Of a stretch of 64,000 nt of DNA, positions 9,995 through 62,059 are shown piece by piece. A program made the position numbers and the translations under genes. The notes below the pieces were generated by a model, which was not told where the DNA came from, searched no databases, and was given only the letters and a program-made list of their open reading frames with translations. The stretch's first letter is position 1. Each line of letters begins with the position of its first letter. Source of the stretch: an uncultured bacterium (GTDB taxonomy: Bacteria; Patescibacteriota; JAHJAL01); NCBI GenBank assembly GCA_938004065.1, contig CALKWM010000041.1, positions 26,889-90,888 of the forward strand. The letters run 5' to 3'.

Positions 9995-10145
9995 GTCATC
10001 CTTAAACCTGATCCGCCTTGCCTGCCCGCCTTGGGTGGGGGCGGACAAGCGATTCAGGATCTCCAAATCTCGAATCCAAAGCGTCATCGTATTTGTTTGA
10101 GTCTTGTCCGCCGAAGTTTTTAGGAGGCAGGGGGATCCAGAAAAA
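9995..10145. repeat. GC-rich structured intergenic element, family 2 copy 1. It has nested hairpins around ccttgcctgcccgccttgggtgggggcgg and an inverted pair ggcggacaag … cttgtccgcc.
   Basis: GC-rich island directly after the recG stop in an otherwise AT-rich genome. It shares a 24-nt core with 13755-13860 and the submotif cttgtccgSCgaa with family 1. Confidence 0.6.
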
Positions 10146-10201
10146 AATTTCTTTTTTTTAAAAACTTTTTACTTCAATATGTTTAATATGTTTGATATTT
10201 G

Positions 10202-10337
10202 ATGAGTAGTGCTAATTAATTTTCTTATCTGTCATCCTCGAGTCGAAAGCGAGGGACGAGCGATTAGACAACTTGTCCGGCGAATGCTGGATCGGGGATC
10301 CATACCATATTTCTTATTTTTATTTAGCACTACTCAT
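10202..10337. mobile_element. MITE-like palindromic element, family 1 copy A. Terminal inverted repeats atgagtagtgctaa … ttagcactactcat flank a GC-rich core (ctgtcatcctcgagtcgaaagcg … aacttgtccggcgaatgctggatcggggatcca).
   Basis: Perfect 14-nt TIRs were read directly. Two more copies sit at 20460-20572 and 60541-60730. The element is non-coding and intergenic. Confidence 0.65.
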
Positions 10338-10405
10338 TATTTGATATGTTTGATAAGTTTTACTTAAGTTTTTATTAAACATTTCTTAATCTCTAAATTA
10401 TTATC

Positions 10406-11726: not shown

Positions 11727-11810
11727 TGGGGGCGGAGAGACTCGAACTCACACAGGTATTACCCCACTTGGTCCTAAGCCAAGCGCGTCTACCAATTCCG
11801 CCACGCCCCC
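11727..11810 (-). tRNA. tRNA-Leu, anticodon UAG, with a long variable arm. No CCA is encoded.
   Basis: Reverse complement is GGGGGCGTGGCGGAATTGGTAGACGCGCTTGGCTTAGGACCAAGTGGGGTAATACCTGTGTGAGTTCGAGTCTCTCCGCCCCCA. It has a 7-bp acceptor stem, an anticodon loop CTTAGGA and a T-arm GTTCGAGTC. The track ORF 11659..11859 overlapping it is spurious. Confidence 0.85.
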
Positions 11811-13754: not shown

Positions 13755-13860
13755 TACGGGCGACCCTTGCCTGTCCGCCTTGGGTGGGCGGTCGCCCTCG
13801 TGCTTTTATAGCGGACCCTTTACTTGCCCGCCGATGAGGCGGGCGGTCGACTAAAAAGAA
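13755..13860. repeat. GC-rich structured element, family 2 copy 2. It carries nested stem-loops gggcgacc…ggtcgccc and gcccgcc…ggcgggc.
   Basis: It shares ccttgcctgYccgccttgggtggg with 9995-10145 and lies directly after the rmuC stop. Confidence 0.6.
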
Positions 13861-18554: not shown

Positions 18555-18661
18555 TCGTCCCAAGATCATCGAGGGACACCACACTTGGATATTGATACTT
18601 GAAACTTGATACTTTCTAAACTAATAAATATTTCTCAATAAATATAATATCTTTTACCACC

Positions 18662-19822: not shown

Positions 19823-20455
19823 ATGAAAACAAAAACAAAAAAAGCCACTACCACTTGCAAAAACAAACCACAGATTAAAAACTCTTTCAATCCAGAACAC
19901 TTAAAGTACTCCATCTGTGTTTCCGGTTCCGCCAATGCGGAAATTTGCGATGTTGATGCTGCCTCAAAAGTGGAAGAATTGGGACGTCAAATTGCCCTCC
20001 ACAACGCTTTCCTAATGACCGGAGCCACCACCGGCATGCCGGACTATGCTGCCAAAGGATGCCAAGACGCCGGCGGTATCAGTATCGGTGTCTCACCGGC
20101 CTACTCCAAACACGATCACGTTAATCGCTACAATCTCCCGCTCAAAAATTATGATCTCATCATGTACACCGGTTTTGGGTACTCCGGCAGAAATCTACTC
20201 CTAACCCGTATGGCCGACGCAGTAATAAATGTTTGCGGACGAATCGGCACTCTCAATGAATTTACCATTGCTTTCGAAGATAAAAAAATTATTGGAGTTC
20301 TGGAAGGTACCGGAGGGTTGGTCAATGAATTCAGAAAAATTGTCAACAAAGGATACCGTGGCCCGGGTAAAATAGTTTACGATCATGACCCTAAAAAATT
20401 GGTAGAAAAAGTAATTGCCCTGATTGCCGAAGAAAATAAATTCAAAAATAAATAA
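19823..20455 (+). CDS. LOG/SLOG-superfamily Rossmann-fold protein (TIGR00725-like, DprA/LOG-related)
   Basis: ICVSGSANAE … LMTGATTGMPDYAAKGCQDAGGISIGV … MYTGFGYSGRN … VINVCGRIGTLNEF matches the TIGR00725/LOG family pattern. Confidence 0.55.
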   Translation: MKTKTKKATTTCKNKPQIKNSFNPEHLKYSICVSGSANAEICDVDAASKVEELGRQIALHNAFLMTGATTGMPDYAAKGCQDAGGISIGVSPAYSKHDHVNRYNLPLKNYDLIMYTGFGYSGRNLLLTRMADAVINVCGRIGTLNEFTIAFEDKKIIGVLEGTGGLVNEFRKIVNKGYRGPGKIVYDHDPKKLVEKVIALIAEENKFKNK

Positions 20456-20459
20456 ATAT

Positions 20460-20572
20460 ATGAGTAGTGCTAATTAATTTTTTTATCTGTCATCCTCGAA
20501 TCGAAAGCCATTTTATGGCGCTTCGATATCGGGGATCCATGCCATATTTTTTATTTTTATTTAGCACTACTT
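20460..20572. mobile_element. MITE-like palindromic element, family 1 copy B, a shorter variant. TIRs are tgagtagtgctaa … ttagcactactta.
   Basis: Same TIRs and the same cores (ctgtcatcctcgaatcgaaagc, atcggggatccatgccatat) as copy A, with an internal deletion. It sits between the LOG-like gene and the giant ORF. Confidence 0.65.
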
Positions 20573-20588
20573 ATAAATATATATTTTC

Positions 20589-23500
20589 ATGAGAAAACTA
20601 TTCTCAAATCTTATCGACAAAATATCCAAAAACCAAACCTATGCTTTGGTATTTGGCTTAATACTATTTATTGCCATAGTAATTGGCATTCCATATCTCG
20701 ACTCAATTAATAAAAATCAGACACTTGAACTAAACCACCCATTGACAGAACGAATTGGCGATAACCACAAAATTTCAACTCCCACAGACGAAACAGATTA
20801 TACCGTTCCATCAGAAAACGACAGTACAATAACAGCCAAAACCGATACGGATGAAACGGTTATTTCTGATAATTCATCATCAACTGTTAGCAATCAAACC
20901 AATATTTCAAACCAACCCTCAAACGACAATGACACTAGTTATGCCATCATTGACATTTCCTCAAACATTATCTCTCCCGTGCAGGACACCGAACCAATAG
21001 TTATCAACGAAACCGCTCCTTGGGATGAGGGATACTATCAATACCAGGATGATACAATCGAAGTTAAATTTGGCGACAAAGACGAACAAAATCCAAAAGT
21101 TACATACAAGGCACCTATTTGGCAAGACATAAACGGCGAGTTATTTAATTCAGTTTCCAATTGGCTCGATCGCATCACCAACCGTAATATCAAATCAATC
21201 GAATTTTCTCTGGTTGATGCTTATGATTCCAGAACCCAATCAGAACCCAAAATTGATCTTCCAATTTCCGATTTTGAATCTAGTTTTTGGAATCAAATCA
21301 AAAATTTCTTTGTACGAATTTTCGAAGACAATCCAAACAACATCTTATTGTTCCAAGAAGATGGCCACGACATAATTTTAAACAAAAGTGTTCTAAAAAA
21401 TATCAATGTCAAATATCAGATTTTAAATAATCGAGGAATCAAAGAAGAAATAGTTATTGTAAATAGAGACGATCTAAAAAACTCATTTGTCTTCAGTCTA
21501 AAACTGGACAAAGGGATGAAGTATAATCGCAACCAGGAAATGGTTGTTGATGCGCCGGCCAATGTCTATTATTTCTATGACGAACAAAATCGATACATTG
21601 CCCATTTCGTGTCACTTTATGCCGAGGATCAGGCCGGCGCCAAGACGGAAAACGTTACCATGAAAATTAGCCAACTTTCCGATACGGATCACAAGATAAC
21701 TATCACCGTCGATCCTGAATGGCTTTATAGCTCAGAACGTAAATTCCCGATAATCATCGACCCATCGATCGTCCACGACACCCAGACTGAATTTGATACC
21801 GCCAAATCGTTAAATCGGGTTACTACCAACGCCAATCCGTCGATCGAACTGTCCGGACCCCCATACAAAAATTATGGAGTTTATACTTCTGATGTAATCG
21901 ACTTTGGCATAGCTGACCCAAATCTATACAATATGATCTGGACCGAAAACGGAGTGCAGACCGGCAGTGGCGAAACCGATTTAACCACTAATGGACTGGT
22001 AGCCAAATGGAATTTCAATGAAACTTCCGGTACAAGTGTCAGCGATTCCTCCGGTAACGGCCACACCGGCACGCTAACCAATATGACTACCACTGGGCAG
22101 GACGCCAGCGTCAATTCCGGCTGGACGGCTAACAATAAAAAGTGGGGGACTGGATCCGTGATGTTTGACGGTTCAAATGATTATATTGATGTTCCATCAT
22201 TTACTTTTAATGAAAATGGTATATTTGCAGTCTCATTTTGGATGAATCCTGTAAAAACCGGTACAAATCTGCATTATTTATTGGATTTTCGCAACGCTGA
22301 TGCTAACGGACAAAGCGCAGTTATCAGTTATGATCATAACAACACGGGCGCGATCGATTACACTATCTTTGGCGAATCCAATTGGCATAATGGTACCATT
22401 CCGTTAAATGAGAGATCGTGGAACCATGTCGTGGTTATTCACAACTCAAACTCTAACAATTTAAAAACATACATAAATGGTCAATTAGATCAAAATGTCA
22501 GCGTTAATGATTTTACGATAACCGGCTCTCCTTTGAGAATCGGAGCCAGGAGACTCACCGGCGCCGCTCCCTATAAAGGTTCTATTGATGCGATAAAAAT
22601 ATTCAACCGTGATCTGTCGGAAAATGAAATTATATCACTATATAACTCTACCAACATCGAATTCCAGACCCGCACCGGCTCCGACGATAATCCCTATAAT
22701 GGTGGATGGGAAGAATGGAAACCGGCCGGATCGGGCACCGAAACACAATTAGACAGCTTTGATAATCAATTTCTCTATCCCACCAGCGAAACCGGTTTGA
22801 CCAACTACTGGCCAATGGATGAATTGTCCGGTTCAAACGTTGACGAACCGGTTAATTCAGCTGACGGCACCGCCACCGGCACTAAAATCATTGACGGTAA
22901 GTACGCCAAAGCCCGTTATTTTAACGGGACAAGTGATTATCTTTCCGTAACCAATAGTTCGGTCCTAAATCCGGGCAACAATTTTACTATTGAAAGTTGG
23001 ATCTATCAGCCGACTATCAGTGACAATGGGGCGATTATTAGTACACTGGATATTACAAATGGAGTAGTAACCAAAGGTTATGCTTTCAAAACAAATACCA
23101 GCTCATTATATGGTTGGAGGGCCAATAGTCTGATGTTACAATTGGGTACTCCCACCTGGAACTGGGGATATTGGACATCCCCAACCAACAGTTTGACTGC
23201 CGGTCGCTGGCACCATGTGGCTGTAACCGTGGCCAATGCCAATACTGCATCTAAAACCGTCTATTTTTACATCGACGGCAAACAATACCCCGGCGCTTTT
23301 TGGACCAATAACAGTCAACAAGTGGTCAATTTTAACACCAACACCACATCCAGCCGAATCGGTGGAATATATACTGCCACCATGCCTTCTTACAATACAA
23401 CATATTTCAACGGCAATATTGACGAACTAAAAATTTACAGCGCCATACTAAGCGCTGATCAAATCAGTCAAAAATATTTGGAAGGAAAAGAATTATTTAA

Positions 23501-26500
23501 TCTCCAACCATGTATATATCAAACCAACGACTCCGATATTAAAGTTGAAGGTTCTTATTCATCCAGAAATTCCTTTGGTCATGCTATTACCAGCCAAAAT
23601 CTCGTCGCTCTCTGGCACTTGGACGAAACCGGCGGTAGTGGGGCTTATCTGAAAGACAGTTCCGGTAACAACAACCACGCCACCCCTTCGAGTTCGAACA
23701 ACAATATTGAAAATGGCATTACCGGTAAAGGCAGAAAAACGGTAAATGGCGGCAATATCACTATTCCCGATTCAACATCGTTACGACCAGCCGGCGCTTT
23801 TTCCTTTAATTTTTGGATTAAAACTAATGGTTTAAACTCTACCGCCCAATCATATTTCATCAACAAAGAAACCTGGTCGTCGAGTGGCTGGGCAATTATG
23901 GATAATGGTTCCTATACCAGTGATGTTATGTTCAGAGTTTTACCATCGGGTACCGGAACTTGTGGAACGGGTGTAGCATGTATGAGCCGTACCCTGGTAA
24001 ATGACAACAACTGGCATATGATTTCCGGTGTTTATAATGGCTCTAATATTTTTTTGTATCTCGACGGTGTCCAAAAAGACAGCCGTAGTGCCGGCAGTTT
24101 TACTACCAGCAATAACAATGTTTTAATAAATCAAACAAGCGGTAGCGCCAATGGCGTCCTGATGGATGAAATATCAATCCATGGTACTGCATTGAGTGTT
24201 GATGAAATCAACGAATTATACCGTCTCGGCCGTGATCATTATGTGAACAACAACATTGACTCAATTGATCTAAGTGATAGCTCTAAAATCGCTTTTTATA
24301 CCGCCTCCGATCAACCAGGCGAAAATTATGATTTAATTGTTGGCGAATCCACCTTTGCCAACTACCAAACTGACGCTAACACAATTGGTTTGTGGCATTT
24401 AAATGATAAAACAAACAATATTTTTGACTCAAGTGGATACTACAACAACGGAACAACTTCAGGGACTACGGCTGTGAATGCTTATTTAGATTATGGCAGA
24501 TCATTTAACGGAACTAGTGACTGGATCAATATCGACAGTGAGGCCGCCGACATGCCCACCACTACCAGTAACCTATCCGTTTCCGCTTGGGTAAAATGGG
24601 ATGATGCTCCAACCACTAATGAAGTTGTGATTAGTTATGGAGGCAATAACAGCGCCACGGGCTGGTTGTTGCAATACGAAACTACCGGAAAAATTCAGTT
24701 TTCCGTTCGTAATGCAAATTCTGTATCATCCGGTATTACACCTGTCGGCGGACACTGGTACCACCTCACCGGCACCTATGACCATTCCAATGTCAAACTC
24801 TATATCGACGGACAACTGGTAGGTAGTTCGCCGGCCACATCGAATATTATCACCGCCACTACTCTTCGTTTTGGCAATGAATACAATCGCAGTTATTATT
24901 TTGATGGTGTTCTTGATGAGATAAGAATTGACAAAATCGCCCGCACTCCCGAAGAAATTCGCCAGGCCTATGAAATCGGCAAACGAACTCATTCCATCAC
25001 TTTCGACTTCGCCGCCGGCTTGGATAGTGCCAATACCATCAGTGGCTCCGGCGACTATTCATTCACCGTCGACGCCACCACCAAAGGATTAGGAACCAAA
25101 GGCGAGGGATTATATGTCGGCGACAAAATTATTATCAAAGAAAACTATGACGGTACTGAATACATCGCCCAAGGTATCGTCGAAGCCGTCAATCAAACTA
25201 CCGGCGCCACTGTCGTTTCCGCCTGGGATGTCGGCTCTACTTTCCCGTCAGGCGGATTTACTCAATACGCCGATGCTTTCAAATGGCAGCGGGAATACTT
25301 TGATCTGACCGGAATTCTGGATGATCATCTGGAAACCACTCAACTGATCACCATCCGCAAAACCACCGGCACCTCCGGCAGCACCATCTGGCTGGACGAT
25401 TTAAATTCAATCGATAGTTATCTGACGGATCCACTGGGCAGTGAAATTAACTCAAGTGATAATCAATATCTACAGTATCGGGCGATATTTACCACGCAGG
25501 ATGAAAACATCACCCCGTCAATTTCCGATGTTACCATCAATTTCGATAACGCACCCGAACCGTCATTTGATTCCGCCGACACCTCCCAGTCATCCATCAA
25601 CCTCAACAACCAGAATGCTTTCAACGTCCAGTGTCAGAATGCCATGGTCTATGCTTCGGGACAAACGGTCACCTGTCAGGGATCATGGGATAACAGCAAT
25701 TGGAACACGGTGGTCAGTACCACTTCACCCGTTTCCGGCACCATTCAGGGTACTCCAGATATTACAACCTGGACCGGCTATCCCGCTGACGGTAACGTTA
25801 CCATATACGTCCGCATGCTGGTTGAATCCACTCCTTACGGACCGGAGACGTTCAGTGTCACCAAGGACACCGTCCGACCAACCATAAACTCGATAAATTC
25901 CGTCGCCGGCGATACATCCGACCCATATCTCGACCCTACTGATGATGGTTCGACAATAGTCAGTTTAAACACCACCGACGCGAGTACCTGCCGTTGGGAT
26001 GAAAGTGACACCGACTACGCCAGCATGAGCAATACCTGCAGTTCACCAACCAATTGTGACTTGGATATGACTGGTGAGGGAGGTCATATTGTTTATTTCC
26101 AATGTATTGATTCCTCATCCAATTCTACTGCTAATTCCTATGAATTAACATATTCACTCACTTACCTGGAAGACTGGGACGGCATTCCCTATGCTTCCGA
26201 CAACTGTCCGGAGACATATAATCCCAATCAATCAGACATGGATGGGGACACTAGCGGCGACGCCTGTGACCCGGAAACTCTAATAAGCGCCAATACCACC
26301 TGGCCCGCGGGAGAATATAATTTCAAATATTTACATGTGACAAATAACGCCACTCTCACTCTAAACTCTAACACCGGTTCACCCTTCCCCGGTGTCAGTA
26401 TTACTGGTGAAAACATCACCGTTGATAATGGATCAAAAATAAGTGCTGACCAAAAAGGTTACGGCAGTGCTCAAGGGCCCGGGGCCGGTGCAAATGGAAA

Positions 26501-29500
26501 CACCGTGTTGCAACCTGTCGGTGGTACCGGCGCTGATCATGGCAGTCGTGGCGGTAACGGCATCAATCATACCAATAACGATAATTCATATGGCAATGCT
26601 TATGAACCGACTACTTTGGGCAGTGGTGGTGGTAGTGAAGATTCCTTTCATAACACTTATGGTGGTCCTGGTGGTGGAGCCATCAAAATAAATATTTCTG
26701 GTATCCTGACAAATAACGGAATTATAAGCACCAACGCCGGCAATGCCATTTTTAGCGGTTACGGCATTCCACAAGGTAGCGGCGGCGGATCCGGCGGTAG
26801 TATCTGGATTATAACTAATACTATAAATGGTAATGGTAGTATCCAATCCAATGGTGGTGCGGCCACCACCGGCGCCAACTGCTCAAACTGTTACGGTGGC
26901 GGTGGTTCGGGCGGACGTATCAGTATCAATTTTTCTACAAGCAATTATGCTGGCGCAATTAAAGCCATGGGTGGTACCGGTCATCAGCAAGGAGAAGACG
27001 GCACAATTTCTTACAACGGCAACATGTCGAATTCGTGCGACACCGGCAATCCTTTTAGTCATTGTTATATTGATCAAATTCACCACTTACCGAACAATCT
27101 ATCCTACAAATACAATAATCTTACCATCGAATCAGGCGGTCAGATGGAGTTTAAAGATGATTATACCGGCACACTGGAGCCTGGCAATTTATCAATTGAG
27201 ACTGATGGTATGATTAAAATCGACAACTCAGCCGAAATTGATATCACCGGGGTCAATACTATTGATATAGATGGGGAAATATATCTCGAATCGGGCACAT
27301 CCGGAAATCATAGTGTTTTATCGCTCAGCGGTGATGATATTACCATCTCAGGTAATTCGGTCGAAGGCGAGCGCTGGTCGGAAATAAATATTCATGCTAA
27401 TGACGCTTTATTGGTGGATGGATTAGTCAAAGCTACCTGGATCGATATAACCGGCGACAATTTTAATATAACTTCAAGTGGACAAATTATAACCGACACA
27501 TTGGGACACCCCAGCACTTCCGGTCCCGGAGCCGGTTCGTATGGTAATTCCACCCTGGGACCGGTAGGCGCTACTGGCGCCGGTCATGGTGCTGTTGGTG
27601 GCGACGGCTATGATCATACTCCAGGCGGTTCCAGCTATGGCGATCAAAATGCCCCGGTTGATCTCGGTTCAGGTGGTGGTAGCCAAAACTCTTCTTATCC
27701 CGATTTTGGTGGTCCTGGTGGCGGCGCTTTAAAAATTAATTTAAATGGTACTTTAAACAATAACGGTCTTATCAGTAGTAATGCTAGCGATGCCATTTAC
27801 AGTGGTTATGGTTTTCCTCAAGGTTCCGGTGGTGGTTCCGGCGGTAGTATATGGATAATCTCTGACGCATTAAATGGTAGCGGTCAAATTGAAGCCGATG
27901 GCGGCGATGGTAACGATGGTATTAACGCTCCGGTAGCTTATGGTGGTTGCGGTTCCGGCGGCAGGATTAAAATTGAATATGTCACAAATAGTTTTACTGG
28001 CGATGTCACCGCCGACGGTGGCACGATCGGTCATGCCGTTCCTTGTTCAGCCGGTTCTATCGTCTACACTCAAAATTCTTCAAGTTTACCACGGGTTAAT
28101 TCGATCACTTCAGTTGCCGGTGATACATCTTTACCCTATGAAGACACTACGGATAACAGTCAAACGCTGGTTGAATTCACCACCTTAAACAGCCCAACCA
28201 ACGTCAAATGGGATACCATCGATACCAACTATGATTCCATGACCAATAGTTGTGGCAGTATTACTCAATGTTTGCTTGATCTATCCGGCAACGGTGTTAA
28301 AACCGTCTATTTCCGGGCCACCGATGGTTCCGGTAATAACTCGGCCTCCTCCTATGTTTTGCAATACACCATCAATGACACATCAGTTTCGGAGCCATTT
28401 GTCAGTGCTATTATCTCTGTGGCCGGTGATGACACCCCGCCATATGTCGATGTCAGCGATGACGAACACACAATGGTTAATTTTTCTACCATCAATAATT
28501 CAACCAATGTCAAATGGGATAACACTGACACCGACTACGATAGTATGTCCAATAGTTGTGACAGCATAACTGAATGTGACTTGAATCTTGCCGGCGACGG
28601 TATTCACGTTGTTTATTTCCGCGCCACTGATGGTTCAGGAAATAAATCGTCTTCTTCAACCCAACTACAATACACTATCCGACAAACAGAATATTCTAAT
28701 CAACTCAGTAGTTCATTTCCTTCCGAAAATGACTTAACTCTAACTGTTAGTTTTAAACCCAGTTTTTCTGAACCCATCACCGACGGCAGTATCAAACTAA
28801 TCATGGATGATGAATTTGACTTTAGCGGTTTGACTATCAATGATGTCTCCGCCAGTGGTGGCGATGTCACCTGGACCAATGACGAGCAGATCTATGCCGG
28901 TGGAATTCAAATCGCGAGATCAAATATTCCATTTGTAAGTATTGCTAAGGCTCAAGGAGAAAATTCCATTACCTTTAACTTCACCGGTGATATTTCTTCT
29001 GAAGATGGAGAGATAACTTTCATCATTGGTGGCTTAAATCAACCCGGTAATCCACCCACCGAAGGACCATATAGTTACATCCTCGAATGGTATGAAGAAA
29101 ATAACGCCGGTGGTTCACCTTTGTATATTCAGGACGGTAAAGTACATATCAATACCGGCACAACAGTTTCCGCTTCAGTACCGACTGCTTTTTCATTTAT
29201 CATCGATCCGGTTGGTACGGGCACCGTCAATGGCGCCAACATCACCACCTCCACCACAACCGGCAATACTGCCAATTTTGGAACATTCACTTCCGCCGAC
29301 GATCGCATTGCCGCCCATGACCTCATTGTCTCTACCAACTCGACCAGCGGTTACATTATCACTACTCAGTATTCCGGACTATTTTCTTCCGCTACTGACA
29401 ATATGAATAATTTTACCGGATCAAATACCGCACCAACCACCTGGACCACACCCCCCGGATCCGGAGTGGAAAGCTATTTTGCTTATACAACTAATGATTC

Positions 29501-29711
29501 TTCACTCTTGAATTCTTCAACAGACAGATTTACCTCTTCCGGTGGCAATAAATGGGCCTCCTTCGCTACCACTCCCTCCGAAGTGTCATATTCCAACACT
29601 GCCGTGATAGATGAAACCACCAGAGTAGGATACCGTCTGGAAATTACCAATCTGCAACCGGCCGGCATATATTCCACAAATGTCATGTATATCGCTACAC
29701 CAACATTCTAA
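20589..29711 (+). CDS. Giant (3040 aa) cell-surface multidomain protein. It has an N-terminal signal-anchor, 4-5 LamG/concanavalin-A-like lectin domains, one thrombospondin type-3 Ca-binding repeat, two ~348-aa Gly-rich beta-helix-like repeats, three ~95-aa Cys-containing Ig-like modules and a C-terminal ~190-aa domain shared with the next gene.
   Basis: Single uninterrupted ORF. LamG_3-type motifs (LVAKWNFNETSGTSVSDSSGNGHTGTL, GSIDAIKIFNRDLSENEI and paralogous copies). TSP3 repeat DWDGIPYASDNCPETYNPNQSDMDGDTSGDACDP. Duplicated GGPGGGA(I/L)KIN … SGGGSGGSIWII blocks. Three …SVAGDTSxPYxD…KWDxxDTDYxSMxNSCxSxTxC…VYF… modules. Confidence 0.85.
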   Translation: MRKLFSNLIDKISKNQTYALVFGLILFIAIVIGIPYLDSINKNQTLELNHPLTERIGDNHKISTPTDETDYTVPSENDSTITAKTDTDETVISDNSSSTVSNQTNISNQPSNDNDTSYAIIDISSNIISPVQDTEPIVINETAPWDEGYYQYQDDTIEVKFGDKDEQNPKVTYKAPIWQDINGELFNSVSNWLDRITNRNIKSIEFSLVDAYDSRTQSEPKIDLPISDFESSFWNQIKNFFVRIFEDNPNNILLFQEDGHDIILNKSVLKNINVKYQILNNRGIKEEIVIVNRDDLKNSFVFSLKLDKGMKYNRNQEMVVDAPANVYYFYDEQNRYIAHFVSLYAEDQAGAKTENVTMKISQLSDTDHKITITVDPEWLYSSERKFPIIIDPSIVHDTQTEFDTAKSLNRVTTNANPSIELSGPPYKNYGVYTSDVIDFGIADPNLYNMIWTENGVQTGSGETDLTTNGLVAKWNFNETSGTSVSDSSGNGHTGTLTNMTTTGQDASVNSGWTANNKKWGTGSVMFDGSNDYIDVPSFTFNENGIFAVSFWMNPVKTGTNLHYLLDFRNADANGQSAVISYDHNNTGAIDYTIFGESNWHNGTIPLNERSWNHVVVIHNSNSNNLKTYINGQLDQNVSVNDFTITGSPLRIGARRLTGAAPYKGSIDAIKIFNRDLSENEIISLYNSTNIEFQTRTGSDDNPYNGGWEEWKPAGSGTETQLDSFDNQFLYPTSETGLTNYWPMDELSGSNVDEPVNSADGTATGTKIIDGKYAKARYFNGTSDYLSVTNSSVLNPGNNFTIESWIYQPTISDNGAIISTLDITNGVVTKGYAFKTNTSSLYGWRANSLMLQLGTPTWNWGYWTSPTNSLTAGRWHHVAVTVANANTASKTVYFYIDGKQYPGAFWTNNSQQVVNFNTNTTSSRIGGIYTATMPSYNTTYFNGNIDELKIYSAILSADQISQKYLEGKELFNLQPCIYQTNDSDIKVEGSYSSRNSFGHAITSQNLVALWHLDETGGSGAYLKDSSGNNNHATPSSSNNNIENGITGKGRKTVNGGNITIPDSTSLRPAGAFSFNFWIKTNGLNSTAQSYFINKETWSSSGWAIMDNGSYTSDVMFRVLPSGTGTCGTGVACMSRTLVNDNNWHMISGVYNGSNIFLYLDGVQKDSRSAGSFTTSNNNVLINQTSGSANGVLMDEISIHGTALSVDEINELYRLGRDHYVNNNIDSIDLSDSSKIAFYTASDQPGENYDLIVGESTFANYQTDANTIGLWHLNDKTNNIFDSSGYYNNGTTSGTTAVNAYLDYGRSFNGTSDWINIDSEAADMPTTTSNLSVSAWVKWDDAPTTNEVVISYGGNNSATGWLLQYETTGKIQFSVRNANSVSSGITPVGGHWYHLTGTYDHSNVKLYIDGQLVGSSPATSNIITATTLRFGNEYNRSYYFDGVLDEIRIDKIARTPEEIRQAYEIGKRTHSITFDFAAGLDSANTISGSGDYSFTVDATTKGLGTKGEGLYVGDKIIIKENYDGTEYIAQGIVEAVNQTTGATVVSAWDVGSTFPSGGFTQYADAFKWQREYFDLTGILDDHLETTQLITIRKTTGTSGSTIWLDDLNSIDSYLTDPLGSEINSSDNQYLQYRAIFTTQDENITPSISDVTINFDNAPEPSFDSADTSQSSINLNNQNAFNVQCQNAMVYASGQTVTCQGSWDNSNWNTVVSTTSPVSGTIQGTPDITTWTGYPADGNVTIYVRMLVESTPYGPETFSVTKDTVRPTINSINSVAGDTSDPYLDPTDDGSTIVSLNTTDASTCRWDESDTDYASMSNTCSSPTNCDLDMTGEGGHIVYFQCIDSSSNSTANSYELTYSLTYLEDWDGIPYASDNCPETYNPNQSDMDGDTSGDACDPETLISANTTWPAGEYNFKYLHVTNNATLTLNSNTGSPFPGVSITGENITVDNGSKISADQKGYGSAQGPGAGANGNTVLQPVGGTGADHGSRGGNGINHTNNDNSYGNAYEPTTLGSGGGSEDSFHNTYGGPGGGAIKINISGILTNNGIISTNAGNAIFSGYGIPQGSGGGSGGSIWIITNTINGNGSIQSNGGAATTGANCSNCYGGGGSGGRISINFSTSNYAGAIKAMGGTGHQQGEDGTISYNGNMSNSCDTGNPFSHCYIDQIHHLPNNLSYKYNNLTIESGGQMEFKDDYTGTLEPGNLSIETDGMIKIDNSAEIDITGVNTIDIDGEIYLESGTSGNHSVLSLSGDDITISGNSVEGERWSEINIHANDALLVDGLVKATWIDITGDNFNITSSGQIITDTLGHPSTSGPGAGSYGNSTLGPVGATGAGHGAVGGDGYDHTPGGSSYGDQNAPVDLGSGGGSQNSSYPDFGGPGGGALKINLNGTLNNNGLISSNASDAIYSGYGFPQGSGGGSGGSIWIISDALNGSGQIEADGGDGNDGINAPVAYGGCGSGGRIKIEYVTNSFTGDVTADGGTIGHAVPCSAGSIVYTQNSSSLPRVNSITSVAGDTSLPYEDTTDNSQTLVEFTTLNSPTNVKWDTIDTNYDSMTNSCGSITQCLLDLSGNGVKTVYFRATDGSGNNSASSYVLQYTINDTSVSEPFVSAIISVAGDDTPPYVDVSDDEHTMVNFSTINNSTNVKWDNTDTDYDSMSNSCDSITECDLNLAGDGIHVVYFRATDGSGNKSSSSTQLQYTIRQTEYSNQLSSSFPSENDLTLTVSFKPSFSEPITDGSIKLIMDDEFDFSGLTINDVSASGGDVTWTNDEQIYAGGIQIARSNIPFVSIAKAQGENSITFNFTGDISSEDGEITFIIGGLNQPGNPPTEGPYSYILEWYEENNAGGSPLYIQDGKVHINTGTTVSASVPTAFSFIIDPVGTGTVNGANITTSTTTGNTANFGTFTSADDRIAAHDLIVSTNSTSGYIITTQYSGLFSSATDNMNNFTGSNTAPTTWTTPPGSGVESYFAYTTNDSSLLNSSTDRFTSSGGNKWASFATTPSEVSYSNTAVIDETTRVGYRLEITNLQPAGIYSTNVMYIATPTF

Positions 29712-33514: not shown

Positions 33515-33641
33515 AATTGTGTTACGCACCGGATTTGTTAAAAACATATCCGGTCTTTTTATTTATAAAACCACTTTCTCTAAAGTATAATAAAAATAAG
33601 AAGTTTTCTTACTTCTTGCTTCTTACTTCTTACTCCTTATA

Positions 33642-47337: not shown

Positions 47338-48408
47338 CTAACCATAACTATCTTTTAAATCTAAAAACATTTTATCATCAGTCAAAGCTTTTAGATATTT
47401 TTTAAAATTATCATAAGTCTGCGATTCCAACTCTTTCCATGACAGAGGGCTAGCTTCCAATACCAGAAAAAATGGAATACTGATCCTATCATTTCGAATT
47501 GCCCAACCAACCATAGAAAATATTTTTCTAAAATCAATAATTCCATCATATACACTCGCATGGGCATTGTGACCATCTTTTGGTAAATTACTGATCTCAA
47601 TCATCCGAACCAATCGAGCAATTTTGGGATCAAGCACAAATCTCATCAACCATTTCTCCGCTTCAACATTTTCACAGCACTTATACATACTTCTTGCCCG
47701 ATGAAAATGACCGGCATCAAATGATATCCAAAATTTTCTACCATTGCCTATATTCAAATCCTGGATCAATTTAACAAAATCCATTGGTGTATGCAATTCC
47801 GGATAATACTCAACCAATACATTTATTTCCTCCGGAAGGCAGTCTATCATATCCAGATTTTCTACTAAACCTCGAGAATCCCATCTAATCCATTTTGAAC
47901 TTTTAATGCAAGTCGTATATTTCAGTAATTTTTTTATTTTACACTTCAGATCATCCTTGTTTCTAACACTAAAAAATCTCCACGCGATCATTTGTAAAAA
48001 CATTCTTTTGAAATATCTCGCCCACAAATCTAATTTCATACCTTGTGGCTTATCCCGATTAACCATTTCCAAATCATACTTGAATCTCTCGACATTCCAG
48101 TTAATATCGGGGATATCACCGCAATAATGGTCAAATGTTTTTGAACGGATGTTCTTTACTGTTTTTTCAATGTTAACTACCATTCCTCCCAACACACTCA
48201 AACCCACATGCCCAAAACCGACTTTTCTAAGTAATTTGCAGACTTTGGTATCAAATTTTTTATCCCCAATCGATGATACCAAAAGATATATATTGTCTTT
48301 AAAATACTTTTCCAATTTGCATTCACCTCTTTTTTTTAATATTTCGAAAACACAATCATTATAATATTTATCGCCATCAAATACAACAAAAGACCTGTTT
48401 TTTTTCAC
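47338..48408 (-). CDS. Hypothetical protein, probably an AP-endonuclease-family-2 / xylose-isomerase-like TIM barrel
   Basis: C-terminal half: FDAGHFH … EISNLPKDGHNAHASVYDGIIDFRKIF … FFLVLEA fits the PF01261 pattern (metal-ligand H/D/E, G.G.IDF). Confidence 0.35.
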   Translation of the reverse strand: MKKNRSFVVFDGDKYYNDCVFEILKKRGECKLEKYFKDNIYLLVSSIGDKKFDTKVCKLLRKVGFGHVGLSVLGGMVVNIEKTVKNIRSKTFDHYCGDIPDINWNVERFKYDLEMVNRDKPQGMKLDLWARYFKRMFLQMIAWRFFSVRNKDDLKCKIKKLLKYTTCIKSSKWIRWDSRGLVENLDMIDCLPEEINVLVEYYPELHTPMDFVKLIQDLNIGNGRKFWISFDAGHFHRARSMYKCCENVEAEKWLMRFVLDPKIARLVRMIEISNLPKDGHNAHASVYDGIIDFRKIFSMVGWAIRNDRISIPFFLVLEASPLSWKELESQTYDNFKKYLKALTDDKMFLDLKDSYG

Positions 48409-48435
48409 AGGTCTTTCTAATACATCTTCTTGCTT

Positions 48436-49446
48436 TTAATATTTTTCTTCTCGATTCACCTCCTCACATACTTTATTCATTTCCCGAACGTCATCGAAAA
48501 ATTTGTCACCCAGATTATCTCTATCCGCTGGGTTGATTTCGATGACGATCTCTTCCAAAGTATCAGGAAAATACTCTAATACTTTTTTCAGATACTTTGG
48601 ATAATCGATAACATTTTGATCCGGATGGCAATGCATTTTTATCACTTCATCCATTGCCTCCTCGGATCGATCGACAGATTTAGAATCAAATGCCTTCTGA
48701 TTGAGAATCTGCACCGGATTGTAATCCAGAGAAAACACATTATGCCTGAAACCCGGCACCACGGGTCTTCTGATATTTTCCAAGACATTATAAATGTCAC
48801 CCCACAATCCCATCGCTTCTCCCTGAAGTAAATGAGCCGGATCAAGAGCAATTCCTATATTCTCTCGCTTTAAAAACCTTTTATAATCCAATATATCATG
48901 AAGATAGGAAAAAAAATCTTTACAAGAAAAACTATCAATTTCAAATCCAATCTTCATTTTTGATGAAATGTTTAACAATTCAATTATTTTCTCCTCATCT
49001 TTGACAAATGTTTTTCCAATTCCGGATCTTATATATGTTATTTCTGTATTATTTATCAAATAACTCATGTTTCTCATGAGCTCTTTAATATTTGGATAAT
49101 TTATCAGTCTCCAACCGATATGTGCCTTCATGCGGGAGATAAAAGAGGAAATAGCTTGTTTCCGAAGAAATTCATTTATCATCCTCCGGTCAAAGAAATT
49201 GACTATATCCGGAATATCAATATCATTGACCATTATTTTTTCTTCCTCAAGCATTCCTAAAAATTTTTTAGAATCAATTATCCTCATCGGATGAAAACTT
49301 AAACCAACACAATCGATACCGCATCTTTCCTCGATTTCCTGTGCCAGTCTATTAAAATTCGACAACAATACTTTTGGGTCAAACATCCTCCATAATGTTT
49401 TTATATCAGTATGAATACAAGATCCCATAGAAATTGACCATTTCAT
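48436..49446 (-). CDS. Hypothetical protein, a possible distant paralog of the preceding TIM-barrel protein
   Basis: IGIALDPAHLL … MHCHPDQNVIDYPKYLKKVLEYF … EIVIEINP matches weakly to the same sugar-phosphate isomerase / AP-endonuclease-2 pattern. Confidence 0.3.
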   Translation of the reverse strand: MKWSISMGSCIHTDIKTLWRMFDPKVLLSNFNRLAQEIEERCGIDCVGLSFHPMRIIDSKKFLGMLEEEKIMVNDIDIPDIVNFFDRRMINEFLRKQAISSFISRMKAHIGWRLINYPNIKELMRNMSYLINNTEITYIRSGIGKTFVKDEEKIIELLNISSKMKIGFEIDSFSCKDFFSYLHDILDYKRFLKRENIGIALDPAHLLQGEAMGLWGDIYNVLENIRRPVVPGFRHNVFSLDYNPVQILNQKAFDSKSVDRSEEAMDEVIKMHCHPDQNVIDYPKYLKKVLEYFPDTLEEIVIEINPADRDNLGDKFFDDVREMNKVCEEVNREEKY

Positions 49447-49575
49447 TATCCATCACAATCCTTTCTTTTTTAATTTGCATCCTATCAGCAATACCCCAAG
49501 ACTATATTACTTTATTAACCAGATGTCAATATTTATATCCCATATATTCAAATCCACTCTTCAAAAAAGAGTGGA

Positions 49576-50415
49576 TTATTTTGCGATAACCAATTCAATA
49601 TTTTCCCGAATATTTTTCAAAAAATTTTTGAAATTACTCGGATTAAATTTGAAAACAATTAACGGTTCGTCAGTGTTTTTATTTATATTCCTGCACAAAA
49701 ATATTTTTTTATCTATAGATATTTTTTGGTCATCCCAATCCATAATCAATACTTTCACTGAACCAGGGCAAATCTTTTCAATTTCATGATATATTTCCTT
49801 AGGATCTTCCAATTTTGATATATCCAATGATAAATATAAATCTACCGAAGATGATAAAAGTTTTCTGACTCTACAAAATTGACATAAAAATTTTTCTACA
49901 TCATCATTTGGAATATCAACTGTCGCTATATAACGACCGATATTTTTGAAATTATCCATCAAACTAATATAAAACCAAAAATTTTCAAATCTGATTATCT
50001 TGAGTTTGTTAAGATTGTACTTTTTGTCCCTTCTACAATAATTCCAAACTAATATCTCCTGCTTAATTTCAGGTAATAATTGATCTAAAGCAACATTTAT
50101 CGCAGAACATGACTTTTTTGAAATATCTTTTTTGGAGGTCATTATATCCGGTATAAACATACCAAATATACCTATTTTGTGTTTTCTGGCAATATTTTTA
50201 ACATTCAACCTCTTAGTGCCATTTACAAACATTCCTATGGAGATATCTAGATCTGAAATATTTTCAAGTACTTTCAAATAATTATTTACTATTATACTAG
50301 TCGGAAATACCTTTCTTAATTTATTTTTTATAAAAACTTTGCTATCCAGTGTGAGCAAACTACTGGAATCGATAGCAAAATACATCATTTTTTTCACCTC
50401 CTTTTTAAGATTCAT
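49576..50415 (-). CDS. Hypothetical protein (279 aa). No recognisable motif.
   Basis: ORF only. It is preceded on its own strand by a 400-bp AT-rich region with nested inverted repeats. Confidence 0.4.
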   Translation of the reverse strand: MNLKKEVKKMMYFAIDSSSLLTLDSKVFIKNKLRKVFPTSIIVNNYLKVLENISDLDISIGMFVNGTKRLNVKNIARKHKIGIFGMFIPDIMTSKKDISKKSCSAINVALDQLLPEIKQEILVWNYCRRDKKYNLNKLKIIRFENFWFYISLMDNFKNIGRYIATVDIPNDDVEKFLCQFCRVRKLLSSSVDLYLSLDISKLEDPKEIYHEIEKICPGSVKVLIMDWDDQKISIDKKIFLCRNINKNTDEPLIVFKFNPSNFKNFLKNIRENIELVIAK

Positions 50416-50823
50416 ATTTCTAAAGCCATTATATCAATTTTTTTTCTTTTTTCTCTTATCTTCTTGTTTAAATCAGAGTAGGGAAGTACCAAATTTACAA
50501 GTTTGTAAATATCGTCTATGTCATATATATTATTAGAAAAAGATTTACATAATGCGTTATATTTTATTTTATTATTTTATAGAGAAATAAAGCTGATTAA
50601 TTTTGTGCGACATAAGATTTTAAATTACATTTGCTTAGTCGAATAATCGAGGATCAATTATTCGCAGTAAAAATATTATTATCAAACATTAATTTATCTA
50701 TAAATATCACACAATCACAAACACGACAAAAGTTTCACCTTATATTAATATAGTCGCACAAGATACATTGTACGACTATTTATTTTACTTATTTTCCCAC
50801 TCCTCTATTGATCTCCAATTCCT

Positions 50824-53802
50824 CTAAACCTCATCACCATCTATGTCTTCAAATACCTCACCGTCCGTACCGATAACTATCTCACCCATATTGGAAAACT
50901 TTGAGTTTTTACTATTTTGGATACTCTTGGTATCACCCACACCTTTATTGCTCGCCTTGAGTGTTTTATTGACATTTTTAACATCATTTTGCATATCTTT
51001 ACTCTGCTTCAATTTCGCTAATTTTGCCTTGACATAATCTGCTTTTTGAATAGATTGTTCGTCTTTAATCACTTTTGGCATTACATCAACTTTCTTCTTT
51101 TTGGGTGGTTTTATGTAAACTTTTTTTTCAACGGTTTTATTATTAAATTTTTGAGAATCCTTAACAACATTGCTAACTGCTTTTTTCACATCTACATTTT
51201 CATTTTCGCTTTTGATAACATTTGTATCAGACTTCTTTTGCTGAAACTTTTTCAATTTTTCAATCAAACTACTCTGCTTTTTTATCTGTTCTTCGTTCAT
51301 TACTTCCGGTTTAGTGTTTTCAACTGGAAATCGTCCCCTACCCCCTCGGCGATTGCCTTTTTGTTGCTTTTCTATCATTTCTCCTTCGACTTTTCGTTTA
51401 TCCAACGATTCCGCCCATTCATTTAGTTTTTTTTCAACAAAACTCCTCTGTGTACCATATCTTTCTCTGGAAACACGTTGAATTTTTTCTTTGTTTCCCG
51501 TCTTTTTTTCGGGCAAATCCAAAGTGGTGGCACTAAATGGCGCTGAAGAAATACCGTCAATAGTCATCCGTAAATAGATCTGAAATCTTTCCAAATTTAC
51601 CAAATCCTCATTGGTAAAAGTCGGCGCAAACTCTTTGGCCAGGTGATCAGCATCGTTAGCTCCCACACGAAATGATACGAGTGTACCTACGTTACCAAAA
51701 ATTGCTTCTCGCACACTATCCTCCATCTGAGCAATATATTGATTGGCTACATGAAGGTTCAGATTGTATTTTCTCGCTTCGGACAAAATAGCCGCAAAAC
51801 TCTCGGTAGCAAAGTTTTGAAATTCATCAACGTACAAATTGAAAGGTACACGTTCACTCTTGGGAATATCTTGACGACTCATAGCCGCCAACTGAATCTT
51901 GGTCACCATCGTGGCACCCAACAAAGCTGAATTATCTTCACCCACAATACCTTTTGATACTTTTACCAAAAATATTTTACTCTCATCCATTATTTGTCTG
52001 ATATTCATGGAACTCGTTGGCTGTCCAATCATATTGCGAATAGTTGCACTGGCCAGAAATTGACCAACTTTATTTTGGATAGGCATCACCGCTTCCTGCC
52101 TGATTTTATCGGGGTATCCTTCAAATTCAGTCATCCAGAAATCCCTGACAACCGGATCTTTCACTTTTTTCAAAACCTCTTCACGATAAAATTTATCTGT
52201 TAACAATCGGGGCACACCCAAAAAAGTACTACCCGGATAATCCAGAAGTGCCAAAAACGTGTATCGTAATATATGCTCCAATCGAGGCCCCCATGAATCA
52301 GCAAAAAGTTTTTTGAAAATCCCAACCAATCCCGAAGTTACAATCGGTTTGTAATCATCTTCAACTTGTTCCAACAAATTGAACGCCATTGGGTTTTCTT
52401 TGTCTCCCGGATCAAACAATATCACGTCATTTACTCGACTTTTCGGAACGTACTCTAAAATAGTATCAACAAAATCTCCATGCGGATCAACCACTGCCAC
52501 TCCCCGACCTTTGTAAATGTCATCGATAACCATGTTTTGCAACAAAGATGTTTTACCCATACCGGTCTTACCAACTATATATGTGTGATAAGATCTGTCT
52601 CCTATCTTTAAACCAAATTTATTCTCCAAACCCCTAAAATTTGTTTGCCCAAAGATAGTTAAATCTTCCTTGGGGGTATTCATCAATGTTGGTAAATTAC
52701 TTGGCGGTTCAGCCGTTTTGGCAGTTGACCAAACTATAGCCGGTGTTTCTACCGATATACTTGGCAAATGATACAAACTAGCCAATTCTTTTACGTTTAA
52801 AACATACCCCCTGCCCCAGAAACTTCTCTTGATATAGGCATTGATATCTGATTTTTGATTTATATTTACCGTTTTACAATAAAAACCGTTGATATTGCTG
52901 GCATTATATTGTTTAAAAGTACTGACAATGGAATTCATTTTGCTTTTAGCATCATTAGTATCATCAGCAAAGCAAATTACTCTGATTTTTGTCTCATAGC
53001 CCAATTTGGTAGTCTTTTCACCGATCGCTTTGATTGCCTCCTCCTCTTGCACGGTTAAAACCTTTTTTGTTCCGGCCGCTTCTTCCGTTTTAGCACCCGA
53101 AGTCAATAAATGTGTAATTATTATCGACAGAAAATGCCAAAAAGAGCCAAATATTCCCATAGAATGGTATTCGCCTCTGATTTTTTGTACTTGTTGTTTA
53201 GATTTCTCCATCCACTTGTTATCCGTCGGACGTACCAAAATTTGCACCCAAATCTGATTATTCAAGTCACCCATTTTACTCAAAACCGCCGTCACACCGG
53301 CCAACGGATCAACTTCAAATGTATCAAAAGTTCTAATTGGAAATGCTTCACTTTTTTCCAATTCGATTTCACAACTACTAAAATTACGATTCAATCCATC
53401 GTATTCCTGGGTATAATCATCCACTCTTTCAATAAGTAAAGTTGGATATTGAGCATACATCTGACCTTCCAAAAACTCGATTATCTGTTCCGGAGCGGTT
53501 GCATAAAACTTGATATATTTACTGGAAGAGACAACTTCAAAACTGATATGTTCTTGCAAGCTACCCTCGACAAAACGATCCCACTTTTTACGATAGATAC
53601 CATGCAAACTGGCGAACATTTGTTCGGCCGAGAGAGCTGTCTTCTCGTTATTTTTCGGCACTTTCAACAACAACGTAACCATCTTCTGTTTCGAAAGCCA
53701 ATTACGATAACGCCGACTCTGCACAGCTAAAAATATCAGATAGATTACACCTACCCATACCGCCAAAAGCAGCAAAAATATCCCAAAATAATAGATAAAC
53801 AT
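50824..53802 (-). CDS. Membrane-anchored P-loop ATPase of the FtsK/HerA/TrwB (VirD4-type coupling protein, DUF87) superfamily. It has an extra ~380-aa N-terminal domain and a ~230-aa Lys-rich disordered C-terminal tail ending in an acidic tip.
   Basis: N-terminal TM helix. Walker A YIVGKTGMGKTSLLQNMV followed by VAVVDPHGDF (compare TrwB IVDPNGDM and HerA DPHGEY). Walker B region NLYVDEFQNF … HVANQYIAQM. The tail is K/E/N-rich and ends GTDGEVFEDIDGDEV. Confidence 0.7.
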   Translation of the reverse strand: MFIYYFGIFLLLLAVWVGVIYLIFLAVQSRRYRNWLSKQKMVTLLLKVPKNNEKTALSAEQMFASLHGIYRKKWDRFVEGSLQEHISFEVVSSSKYIKFYATAPEQIIEFLEGQMYAQYPTLLIERVDDYTQEYDGLNRNFSSCEIELEKSEAFPIRTFDTFEVDPLAGVTAVLSKMGDLNNQIWVQILVRPTDNKWMEKSKQQVQKIRGEYHSMGIFGSFWHFLSIIITHLLTSGAKTEEAAGTKKVLTVQEEEAIKAIGEKTTKLGYETKIRVICFADDTNDAKSKMNSIVSTFKQYNASNINGFYCKTVNINQKSDINAYIKRSFWGRGYVLNVKELASLYHLPSISVETPAIVWSTAKTAEPPSNLPTLMNTPKEDLTIFGQTNFRGLENKFGLKIGDRSYHTYIVGKTGMGKTSLLQNMVIDDIYKGRGVAVVDPHGDFVDTILEYVPKSRVNDVILFDPGDKENPMAFNLLEQVEDDYKPIVTSGLVGIFKKLFADSWGPRLEHILRYTFLALLDYPGSTFLGVPRLLTDKFYREEVLKKVKDPVVRDFWMTEFEGYPDKIRQEAVMPIQNKVGQFLASATIRNMIGQPTSSMNIRQIMDESKIFLVKVSKGIVGEDNSALLGATMVTKIQLAAMSRQDIPKSERVPFNLYVDEFQNFATESFAAILSEARKYNLNLHVANQYIAQMEDSVREAIFGNVGTLVSFRVGANDADHLAKEFAPTFTNEDLVNLERFQIYLRMTIDGISSAPFSATTLDLPEKKTGNKEKIQRVSRERYGTQRSFVEKKLNEWAESLDKRKVEGEMIEKQQKGNRRGGRGRFPVENTKPEVMNEEQIKKQSSLIEKLKKFQQKKSDTNVIKSENENVDVKKAVSNVVKDSQKFNNKTVEKKVYIKPPKKKKVDVMPKVIKDEQSIQKADYVKAKLAKLKQSKDMQNDVKNVNKTLKASNKGVGDTKSIQNSKNSKFSNMGEIVIGTDGEVFEDIDGDEV

Positions 53803-60372: not shown

Positions 60373-60540
60373 GATTAAAAAAATATCTTAAATTAATTAT
60401 AAAATAAGTTACACACTACGTAAATATGAAAAAGACAATATTCAATATACAATATACAATAAGCAAGAATTAAGAAAAATAATAAAAAACATCTATAATT
60501 CTTAATTTAAGTAGCGCTACATAAAAATTAGAAATATACG

Positions 60541-60730
60541 ACTTGTGTGAAATCAATTCTTCTCCTGTCATCCTCGAATCGGAAGCGTTATCGCGATCCG
60601 ATAACTTGTCCGGCGAACCTGTCCGGCGAATGCCCGGATGCGGGATCGGGGATCCAGATATCTTATATTTGTTTTTTAATTCACACAACTCGTTAATATG
60701 TGATACGAATCCCCAATCCCGCATACAAAA
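60541..60730. mobile_element. MITE-like palindromic element, family 1 copy C, a longer variant. Imperfect TIRs (acttgtgtgaaat … aattcacacaact) and an internal long inverted pair gcgggatcggggatcc / gaatccccaatcccgc.
   Basis: It shares ctgtcatcctcgaatcggaagcg, aacttgtccggcgaa (here tandemly duplicated) and ggatcggggatcca with copies A and B. It lies between the SPFH and U32 genes. Confidence 0.6.
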
Positions 60731-60732
60731 CA

Positions 60733-61959: not shown

Positions 61960-62059
61960 AATACTTTATTAATAATATCTTGATCAATTCTAACATTTTT
62001 AAAATAAAAATACTTTTCCTACCCCATAGACAAAAAAAGACATCCACATAGAATCTCTT

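Follow-up and report, generated by a model that had tools for sequence, protein, structure and literature searches.

Three GC-rich palindromic repeats, here called copies A, B and C, are dispersed in a 64-kb segment of a Patescibacteria chromosome (38% GC; contig DAIUKQ010000003.1 of assembly GCA_036848155.1), the whole of which was analysed and is referred to below as the window. They raise the question of whether such repeats are mobile elements or structured RNAs, and whether they are peculiar to the genome in which they were found. The initial annotation of the window left the choice between a miniature non-autonomous element and a family of small RNAs. We present evidence supporting the first of these readings for the units as wholes, and find that their conserved core corresponds to a cross-phylum class of hairpins, the Neisseria NTS and the broader Ssn-related motifs (SRM), a point missed earlier. 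We consider it probable that A, B and C are non-autonomous MITE-like units with 14-bp terminal inverted repeats (TIRs) and 6-bp flanking duplications, whose cargo is a strand-specific single-stranded DNA (ssDNA) hairpin of the NTS/SRM class.

Organization and genomic setting of the three copies

All three copies originally described are present, and all are on the plus strand (Table 1). The window contains exactly three occurrences each of the 5' core CTGTCATCCTCGA and the 3' core ATCGGGGATCCA, and the combined two-core pattern finds three matches there against none in 100 shuffles; a third core proposed earlier (atcggggatccaKaYcatat) fits exactly in A only. The boundaries first given for A stand, those of B need to be extended from 20572 to 20574, and those of C move from 60541-60730 to 60538-60693. 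Each copy is indeed bounded by TIRs, 14 bp long in every case, with one type shared by A (perfect) and B (one mismatch) and a diverged type in C (one mismatch between the arms); the C repeats differ from those of A at 5 of 14 positions, four of the five being compensated on the opposite arm. A and B are 96% identical over their first 49 nt and 87% over their last 60 nt and have AT-rich arms in common, while their centers differ. The block CTTGTCCGGCGAA is found in A and twice in C (the second time with one mismatch) and is absent from B, in agreement with the earlier remark that B lacks an internal block. The cores (49-60% GC) are richer in GC than the flanks (23-28%), as had been noted, and the arms have 19-30%. 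That A, B and C have kept identical cores despite the divergence of their terminal repeats argues that the core itself is under constraint; TIRs less conserved than the core would be unusual if a transposase read only the ends.

Table 1. Positions of the repeat copies, their parts and other features of the window
Feature	Position	Strand	Length	Details
Copy A	10202-10337	+	136 bp	
Copy A, TIRs	10202-10215 (left); 10324-10337 (right)		14 bp	ATGAGTAGTGCTAA / TTAGCACTACTCAT
Copy A, cores	10229-10241 (5'); 10291-10302 (3')			CTGTCATCCTCGA; ATCGGGGATCCA
Copy A, C after palindrome	10300			
Copy A, flanking direct repeat	10196-10201 (left); 10338-10343 (right)		6 bp	TATTTG; 6/6
Copy B (compact form)	20460-20574	+	115 bp	
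Copy B, TIRs	20460-20473 (left); 20561-20574 (right)		14 bp	ATGAGTAGTGCTAA / TTAGCACTACTCAT with one mismatch
Copy B, cores	20487-20499 (5'); 20528-20539 (3')			upper stem AUCGAAAGCC-loop-GGCGCUUCGAU; bulged A at 20528
Copy B, C after palindrome	20537			
Copy B, flanking direct repeat	20454-20459 (left); 20575-20580 (right)		6 bp	AAATAT; 6/6
Copy C	60538-60693	+	156 bp	
Copy C, TIRs	60538-60551 (left); 60680-60693 (right)		14 bp	ACGACTTGTGTGAA / TTCACACAACTCGT
Copy C, cores	60565-60577 (5'); 60645-60656 (3')			
Copy C, duplicated module	60605-60630			TGTCCGGCGAA
Copy C, C after palindrome	60654			
Copy C, flanking direct repeat	60532-60537 (left); 60694-60699 (right)		6 bp	AAATAT, TAATAT; 5/6
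Degenerate GC-rich unit upstream of A	10010-10138	+		GCGTCATCG..., CTTGTCCGCCGAA, GGGGGATCCAG
GC-rich hairpins, RmuC-RpiB gap	13755-13850			24-nt block CCTTGCCTGYCCGCCTTGGGTGGG
Tandem array around A	10176-10201; 10338-10357			units of ~9 nt
tRNA	11727-11810			
Giant-protein gene	20589-29711			3040 aa
TraG/TrwB-like gene and adjoining ORFs	47338-53802	-		992-aa coupling protein
ORF across C in the source record	60470-60733	-	87 aa	probably spurious
7-nt-period arrays	1359-1631; 62059-62163			TTGCTTA / TTGTTTA / TTGATAC
Further gaps with the 7-nt motif	18582-18617; 33605-33639; 63437-63462			

The window carries ordinary housekeeping genes. The neighbors of A are recG and rsmD, and those of B a SLOG-family gene and the gene for a 3040-aa surface protein; C stands between two minus-strand genes, to both of which it is thus antisense. 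By the ORF list made in this analysis all three are intergenic, as first reported; the source record calls an 87-aa ORF spanning all of C, which has no Pfam match and was probably created by the repeat. The observation that the window encodes no cognate transposase proved correct: none was detected among its genes or in the 16 kb of flanking contig, and neither a transposase nor a longer element with the same TIRs was found in the ~80 kb of contig or in 63 kb from relatives.

Several other features of the region deserve mention. The giant protein downstream of B is of the Laminin_G type and has internal repeats; the 798-aa version of a relative keeps only the N-terminal 420 and C-terminal 330 residues, and more distant relatives have no giant gene in the region fetched. 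A TraG/TrwB-like coupling-protein gene (DUF8128) adjoins three ORFs lacking a Pfam match, and this stretch may be the remnant of a conjugative or secretion module. Intergenic arrays with a strict 7-nt period, of up to 14 units, stand in two gene gaps and their motif family recurs in three others; they may be promoter-region or protein-binding arrays.

The same contig holds further related units without the TIRs of A, B and C, which takes the copy number beyond the three originally counted. One is the degenerate unit upstream of A, which also has a GCGATTCAGGATC 3'-half resembling a doublet outside the window. Four more were found in the ~8 kb beyond each window end (16 kb of flanking contig in all), namely an inverted doublet of the GTCATCCTGAAC...GATTCAGGATCC subtype between convergent genes and a tandem pair of the CCTCGA and CCCCGA subtypes in the plus orientation of the window copies. 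Seven of these eight units (three copies and the degenerate unit in 64 kb, and the four in the flanks) point the same way, along the C-rich strand with negative GC skew. The skew is negative in every 2-kb bin of the window except one (+0.05 at 26-28 kb), ranging otherwise from -0.04 to -0.40 whatever the gene strand and being stronger where genes lie on the minus strand; the shared orientation is suggestive only. Separately, the gap between RmuC and RpiB holds other GC-rich hairpins, which have a 24-nt block in common with 10016-10039 in the degenerate unit and contain CTTGYCCGCC modules like those inside A and C.

Evidence for insertion

With the element ends fixed by the inverted repeats, comparison of the flanking bases reveals 6-bp direct repeats next to each copy, which are perfect for A and B and match at five of six positions for C. 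At such a spacing in the AT-rich parts of the window, a 6/6 match is expected by chance at 0.26% of sites (0.0026) and a match of at least 5/6 at 2.8% (0.028), with the caveat that the repeats of all three copies sit in low-complexity AT-rich DNA. The left repeat of B shares two bases with the upstream SLOG gene, the final two of its stop codon.

Comparison with relatives provides a further line of evidence. In a relative whose SLOG protein is 84% identical (L131), the following gene shows homology to both termini of the giant gene; 18 nt separate the pair there, as against 18 nt plus the 115-bp copy B in the window. Two further relatives (L134 and L135; SLOG proteins 79-82% identical) have no such element after the SLOG gene. 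In three others (L128-L130; 75-78%), the scan detected neither an SRM-like unit nor the terminal repeats. A polymorphic insertion site, which the initial annotation had proposed as a test of mobility, is thus seen at B, which is absent from L131, L134 and L135. Taken with the TIRs, the 6-bp repeats and the lack of an ORF of their own, these empty sites support the view that A, B and C are small mobile insertions of the MITE-like kind, 115-156 bp in length, and as such they appear private to this Patescibacteria lineage.

Assemblies of the same strain, each made from one sequencing run, break off precisely at A and at B, as is expected of dispersed repeats. An independent assembly (L116, L119; a 10201-bp contig of Logan SRR6007447) begins 94 nt ahead of rsmD, inside A, and stops 57 nt beyond the SLOG gene, inside B, indicating that the repeats fragment short-read assemblies. 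A itself sits within a short tandem array of ~9-nt units (TGTTTAATA TGTTTGATA ... TATTTGATA TGTTTGATA), and hence its target was itself repetitive.

Correspondence of the core with the targets of Ssn nucleases

A search of the literature with nucleotide strings led to the study of Chenal et al. (Nat Commun 2025; PMC11893778), whereas peptide strings translated from the hairpins had no match. That study describes SsnA, a 94-aa single-domain GIY-YIG protein which binds the Neisseria NTS (CGTCATTCCCGCGMAVGCGGGAATCYRG, encompassing the classical dRS3 repeat) and cuts a few nucleotides upstream of it, acting on the NTS only as ssDNA and only on that strand, with no binding of the RNA form. In vitro, the nick made by the Neisseria and Wolbachia Ssn proteins falls a few nucleotides 5' of GTCAT; binding depends critically on the C that follows the palindrome and cleavage on the three nucleotides that precede it, and extension of the stem and opening of the loop are tolerated (PMC11893778). 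The NTS belongs to the broader SRM class, which is spread across bacteria and was retrieved with the pattern HGTCWYN(0-2)YYVSBRHN(0-5)WNVSBRGN(0-2)RNCYNB (PMC11893778). The class is further marked by numerous dispersed copies in a genome and by an ssn gene of the single-domain GIY-YIG type (cd10448), which the repeats often flank.

The window cores align with this motif position by position, as T-GTC-AT-CCTCGA ... TCGGGG-AT-C-CAK. The 5' flank HGTCWY before the palindrome is matched by TGTCAT in all three copies, the 3' half WNVSBRG-N(0-2)-RNCYNB by ATCGGGGATCCAT in A and B and by ATCGGGGATCCAG in C, and the C directly after the palindrome is present in each. The full published pattern has no match in the 64-kb window. 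All three copies depart from its 5' half at V, where a T forms a T·G wobble, and A departs at H as well; the half-sites are 28-67 nt apart against the 0-5 nt allowed; the wobble and the spacing together account for the published search pattern missing these copies. Once V is relaxed to N and the loop allowed to reach 90 nt, B and C match. Judged by this alignment, the window core is a long-stemmed, member-like variant of the NTS/SRM hairpin class tied to Ssn nucleases.

This correspondence bears on the strongest rival, namely that the copies are ordinary MITEs with an interior derived from an SRM-like repeat but no longer engaged by any nuclease, selfish DNA moved by a DDE transposase that reads the 14-bp ends. 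In its favor, the copies have TIRs, 6-bp duplications and a site unoccupied in relatives, the core of A is rearranged, and no GIY-YIG gene was found in the window or the 16 kb of adjoining contig by regular expression, tblastn or an HMM built from the locus proteins. Nevertheless, it is the two cores that are identical in three copies when the A/B and C terminal repeats differ at 5 of 14 positions, every copy retains the positions relevant to Ssn, namely the GTC preceding the palindrome and the C following it, and units of the SRM type occur on the same contig without these TIRs. We therefore regard the ordinary MITE as unlikely, though it is the most serious competitor to an element carrying an SRM-class hairpin as cargo.

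A family of long-stem hairpins across phyla

A scan of contigs, one genome per species, with the pattern GTCATCCTCGA-N19-79-ATCGGGGATCC recovered at least 113 loci. Those among the matches listed come from the Nitrospirales (with many copies per genome), Peribacteria, Saccharibacteria, Berkelbacteria, Kazan, Parcubacteria, Hyphomicrobium, sphingomonads, Photobacterium, Zhongshania, Caldisericota and others, with a few high-GC ones being chance coding matches. The same long-stem form is thus common in many phyla, and the conserved core is not specific to this genome. The strict published SRM pattern finds 57 sites in these loci compared with 5 in shuffled controls. Small single-domain GIY-YIG genes are present at six of the 113 matches listed; the five that were scanned all match PF01541, and NCBIfam offers no specific model for these small proteins. 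Several of the genes have hairpins directly flanking them, and Patescibacteria-type genomes account for four of the six. A metagenome scan with CTGTCATCCTCGANTCGNAAGC yielded six loci, three of them related hairpins (L125-L127) and none from the population of the window. A match of the 5' core on a viral contig was set aside as a single chance coding match in an aminotransferase-like ORF.

Among the matches listed, 63 of the 102 distinct inner sequences form a single closed hairpin, and 34 hold extra half-sites as nested or tandem arrays. The flanks GTCAT and ATCCAG are constant, and between them the stem after GTCAT covaries with that before ATCC(AG) in more than 20 variants (CCTCGA/TCGGGG, CCCCGA/TCGGGG, TCCCGC/GCGGGA, TCCTGC/GCAGGA, CCCGGA/TCCGGG and others). 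In the same set, the wobbles of the lower stem nearly always pair a 5'-arm T with a 3'-arm G. The one-sidedness of these T·G wobbles, together with the covariation, points to a folded single strand of the GTCAT strand. An outer inverted repeat of at least 12 bp was seen in only 7 of 122 family copies examined, and is hence no general feature of the family.

Certain loci show arrangements of their own. The only other clear nesting like that in the window is in Salegentibacter (L021:550-599), where a hairpin is centered in an outer palindrome of 18-20 bp (AAAGACTATCTGAAAATC...). In other Patescibacteria genomes (L022, L032, L034, L037 and L074), a stretch of 15-40 AT-rich bases regularly separates a CCTCGA-type hairpin from an inverted GTCATTCCCGC-type one downstream (CTGGATTCCCGCC..GCGGGAATGAC), forming head-to-head doublets reminiscent of REPINs. 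In four sphingomonads (L039, L050, L068 and L077), one shared, conserved stop-codon context (...ccgaagtga) directly precedes the hairpin, whose upper stem carries compensated changes; if these loci are orthologous, the hairpin was kept there vertically rather than inserted recently.

Folding of the copies and the RNA and REP alternatives

Within the copies, the 5' and 3' cores pair, AUCCUCGA with UCGGGGAU, with one U/T·G wobble that is available on the plus strand only. The resulting layout is 5'-(C)TGTC-AT-CCTCGA, a variable upper stem and loop of 28-67 nt, a bulged A, and TCGGGG-AT-C-CAK-3'. The claim that each copy folds into a long imperfect hairpin stands for the whole elements, which fold better than their shuffles both as RNA (z of -3.9, -6.7 and -2.9 for A, B and C) and as ssDNA (-2.8, -6.9 and -3.2). 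For the cores taken alone it survives in B (ssDNA z -4.7) and fails in A, where the canonical stem is not closed (z -0.5) and a local hairpin, CCTCG-N9-CGAGG, is preferred.

Strong folds and compensated stems are points in favor of structured small RNAs or cis-regulatory RNA hairpins, such as 3'UTR stabilizers or terminators. The gene context in other phyla agrees with this, as the matches listed lie more often just downstream of a same-strand gene (45 against 30), with convergent gaps favored as well and divergent ones avoided; likewise, the sphingomonad copy keeps its place after one stop-codon context in four genomes, with its upper stem compensated. Against it, Rfam returned only a tRNA at the gathering threshold and only noise in relaxed scans (E up to 10), so that the check for known RNA families proposed at the outset came back without one. 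The scans gave no consistent promoter or terminator pattern, the orientation to neighboring genes is inconsistent, C being antisense to both of its own, and both the duplications at the ends and the empty site in relatives are signs of insertion. The inner regions of the family also fold no better on the plus than on the minus strand (the minus is better in 65, the plus in 29), an excess due in part to C-rich arrays of multiple half-sites becoming G-rich on the minus strand; the asymmetry of the lower-stem wobbles is a more informative strand signal than these inner-region energies. As the published nuclease does not bind the RNA form either (PMC11893778), we hold the RNA reading, which had been offered alongside the mobile element, to be unsupported and quite improbable.

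The dispersal of the hairpins between genes, the inverted doublets seen just beyond the window and elsewhere among Patescibacteria genomes, and a mosaic arrangement typical of BIMEs also bring to mind REP/REPIN-type elements mobilized by a RAYT (Y1/HUH) or the hairpin ends of IS200/IS605-type elements. REPs carry a GTAG-type tetranucleotide, while the conserved 5' flank here is GTCAT; there is no Y1 transposase among the annotated neighbors, and single-strand peel-and-paste makes no target duplication, in contrast to the 6-bp duplications observed. This origin is accordingly the least credible of the three rivals. Integron attC sites, CRISPR, retron RNA, a tRNA-like CCA end and intrinsic terminators were dropped for want of a defining feature.

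Proposed mechanism and implications

Returning to MITE-like units with an NTS/SRM-class hairpin as cargo, we propose that the hairpin would fold when the plus strand becomes single-stranded, be it during replication, repair or the entry of transforming DNA. An Ssn-family GIY-YIG nuclease encoded elsewhere in the genome might then bind the folded hairpin and, by analogy with the in vitro action of the Neisseria and Wolbachia enzymes, nick it a few nucleotides 5' of GTCAT, within the AT-rich arm. A transposase acting in trans would have inserted the whole inverted-repeat-bounded unit, generating the 6-bp duplications. We infer both the action of such a nuclease of this genome on the long-stem copies and the trans-acting transposase as the source of the duplications. 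Against this explanation stand the lack of a GIY-YIG gene, a transposase or a longer element with the same TIRs in the contig stretch searched, the mismatch with the full published pattern, the unclosed stem of A, the TIRs being less conserved than the core, the low-complexity setting of the 6-bp repeats, and the fact that just three copies bear TIRs, one of them with different terminal repeats.

A bolder and distinctly tentative extension is that SRM hairpins spread as the cargo or mobilization handle of small TIR units with 6-bp duplications, and that a large cross-phylum class of long-stem SRMs, with half-sites up to ~80 nt apart, has escaped the published motif search. The long-stem form being common across phyla, published SRM counts are probably underestimates. 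How the target repeats multiply and what role they have outside Neisseria are questions left open by the work on Ssn (PMC11893778), and the locus studied here bears on both, since a target-type hairpin inside a clearly inserted unit ties the target motif of a nuclease to a demonstrable insertion event. Should nicking by Ssn in the AT-rich arm 5' of the hairpin help to copy the unit out, a GIY-YIG ssDNA nuclease would for the first time be linked mechanistically to the expansion of the repeat it targets. In Patescibacteria, which are thought to depend on DNA uptake, the hairpin could, if this is true, gate which incoming single strands integrate. On the practical side, such repeats break short-read assemblies and generate spurious small ORFs.

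Comparison with known systems

The likeness to integron attC sites is one of functional analogy only: in both, a folded single strand is recognized, the stem has a conserved lower end with unpaired or bulged bases, and the top varies greatly in length, whereas the integrase, the cassette array and the R and L box sequences have no counterpart here. REP/REPIN-RAYT systems share dispersed hairpins, sometimes in inverted doublets, and a small nuclease-like gene flanked by its own repeats; they differ in the type of enzyme (HUH/Y1 rather than GIY-YIG), in the conserved flank and in the target duplications found here.

MITEs such as the Correia elements of Neisseria are intergenic units of 100-160 bp with TIRs, a target-site duplication (TA) and no ORF, and they show occupied/unoccupied polymorphism. 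A, B and C resemble them in size, terminal repeats, duplication, lack of an ORF, intergenic position and site polymorphism. The duplication here is 6 bp rather than TA, and it is the interior, a hairpin of a cross-phylum class, and not the ends, that is best conserved.

The dRS3 repeats and NIMEs of Neisseria (ATTCCC-N8-GGGAAT) have a palindrome core of the same type, AT-YCC...GGR-AT, and a mosaic of modules. The window stem, CCTCGA/TCGGGG, is different and much longer, and its hairpin lies inside a TIR-bounded unit, whereas dRS3 itself flanks RS elements.

From the NTS/SRM class as published, the window hairpins depart in having half-sites 28-67 nt apart through a variable upper stem instead of a loop of 0-5 nt, in a T·G wobble at a stem position where the published pattern forbids it, in being embedded in a longer TIR unit with 6-bp duplications, in showing no ssn gene in 80 kb of contig, and in their host, a Patescibacterium, a phylum not mentioned in the main text of that study (PMC11893778). 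They nonetheless share with it the non-palindromic GTCAT flank on the 5' side, the GC-rich palindromic stem followed by C and then YRG-like bases, 3' halves that fit the published pattern exactly, a strand-specific asymmetry, a multi-copy intergenic distribution across phyla, and, in other genomes, small GIY-YIG genes beside such hairpins.
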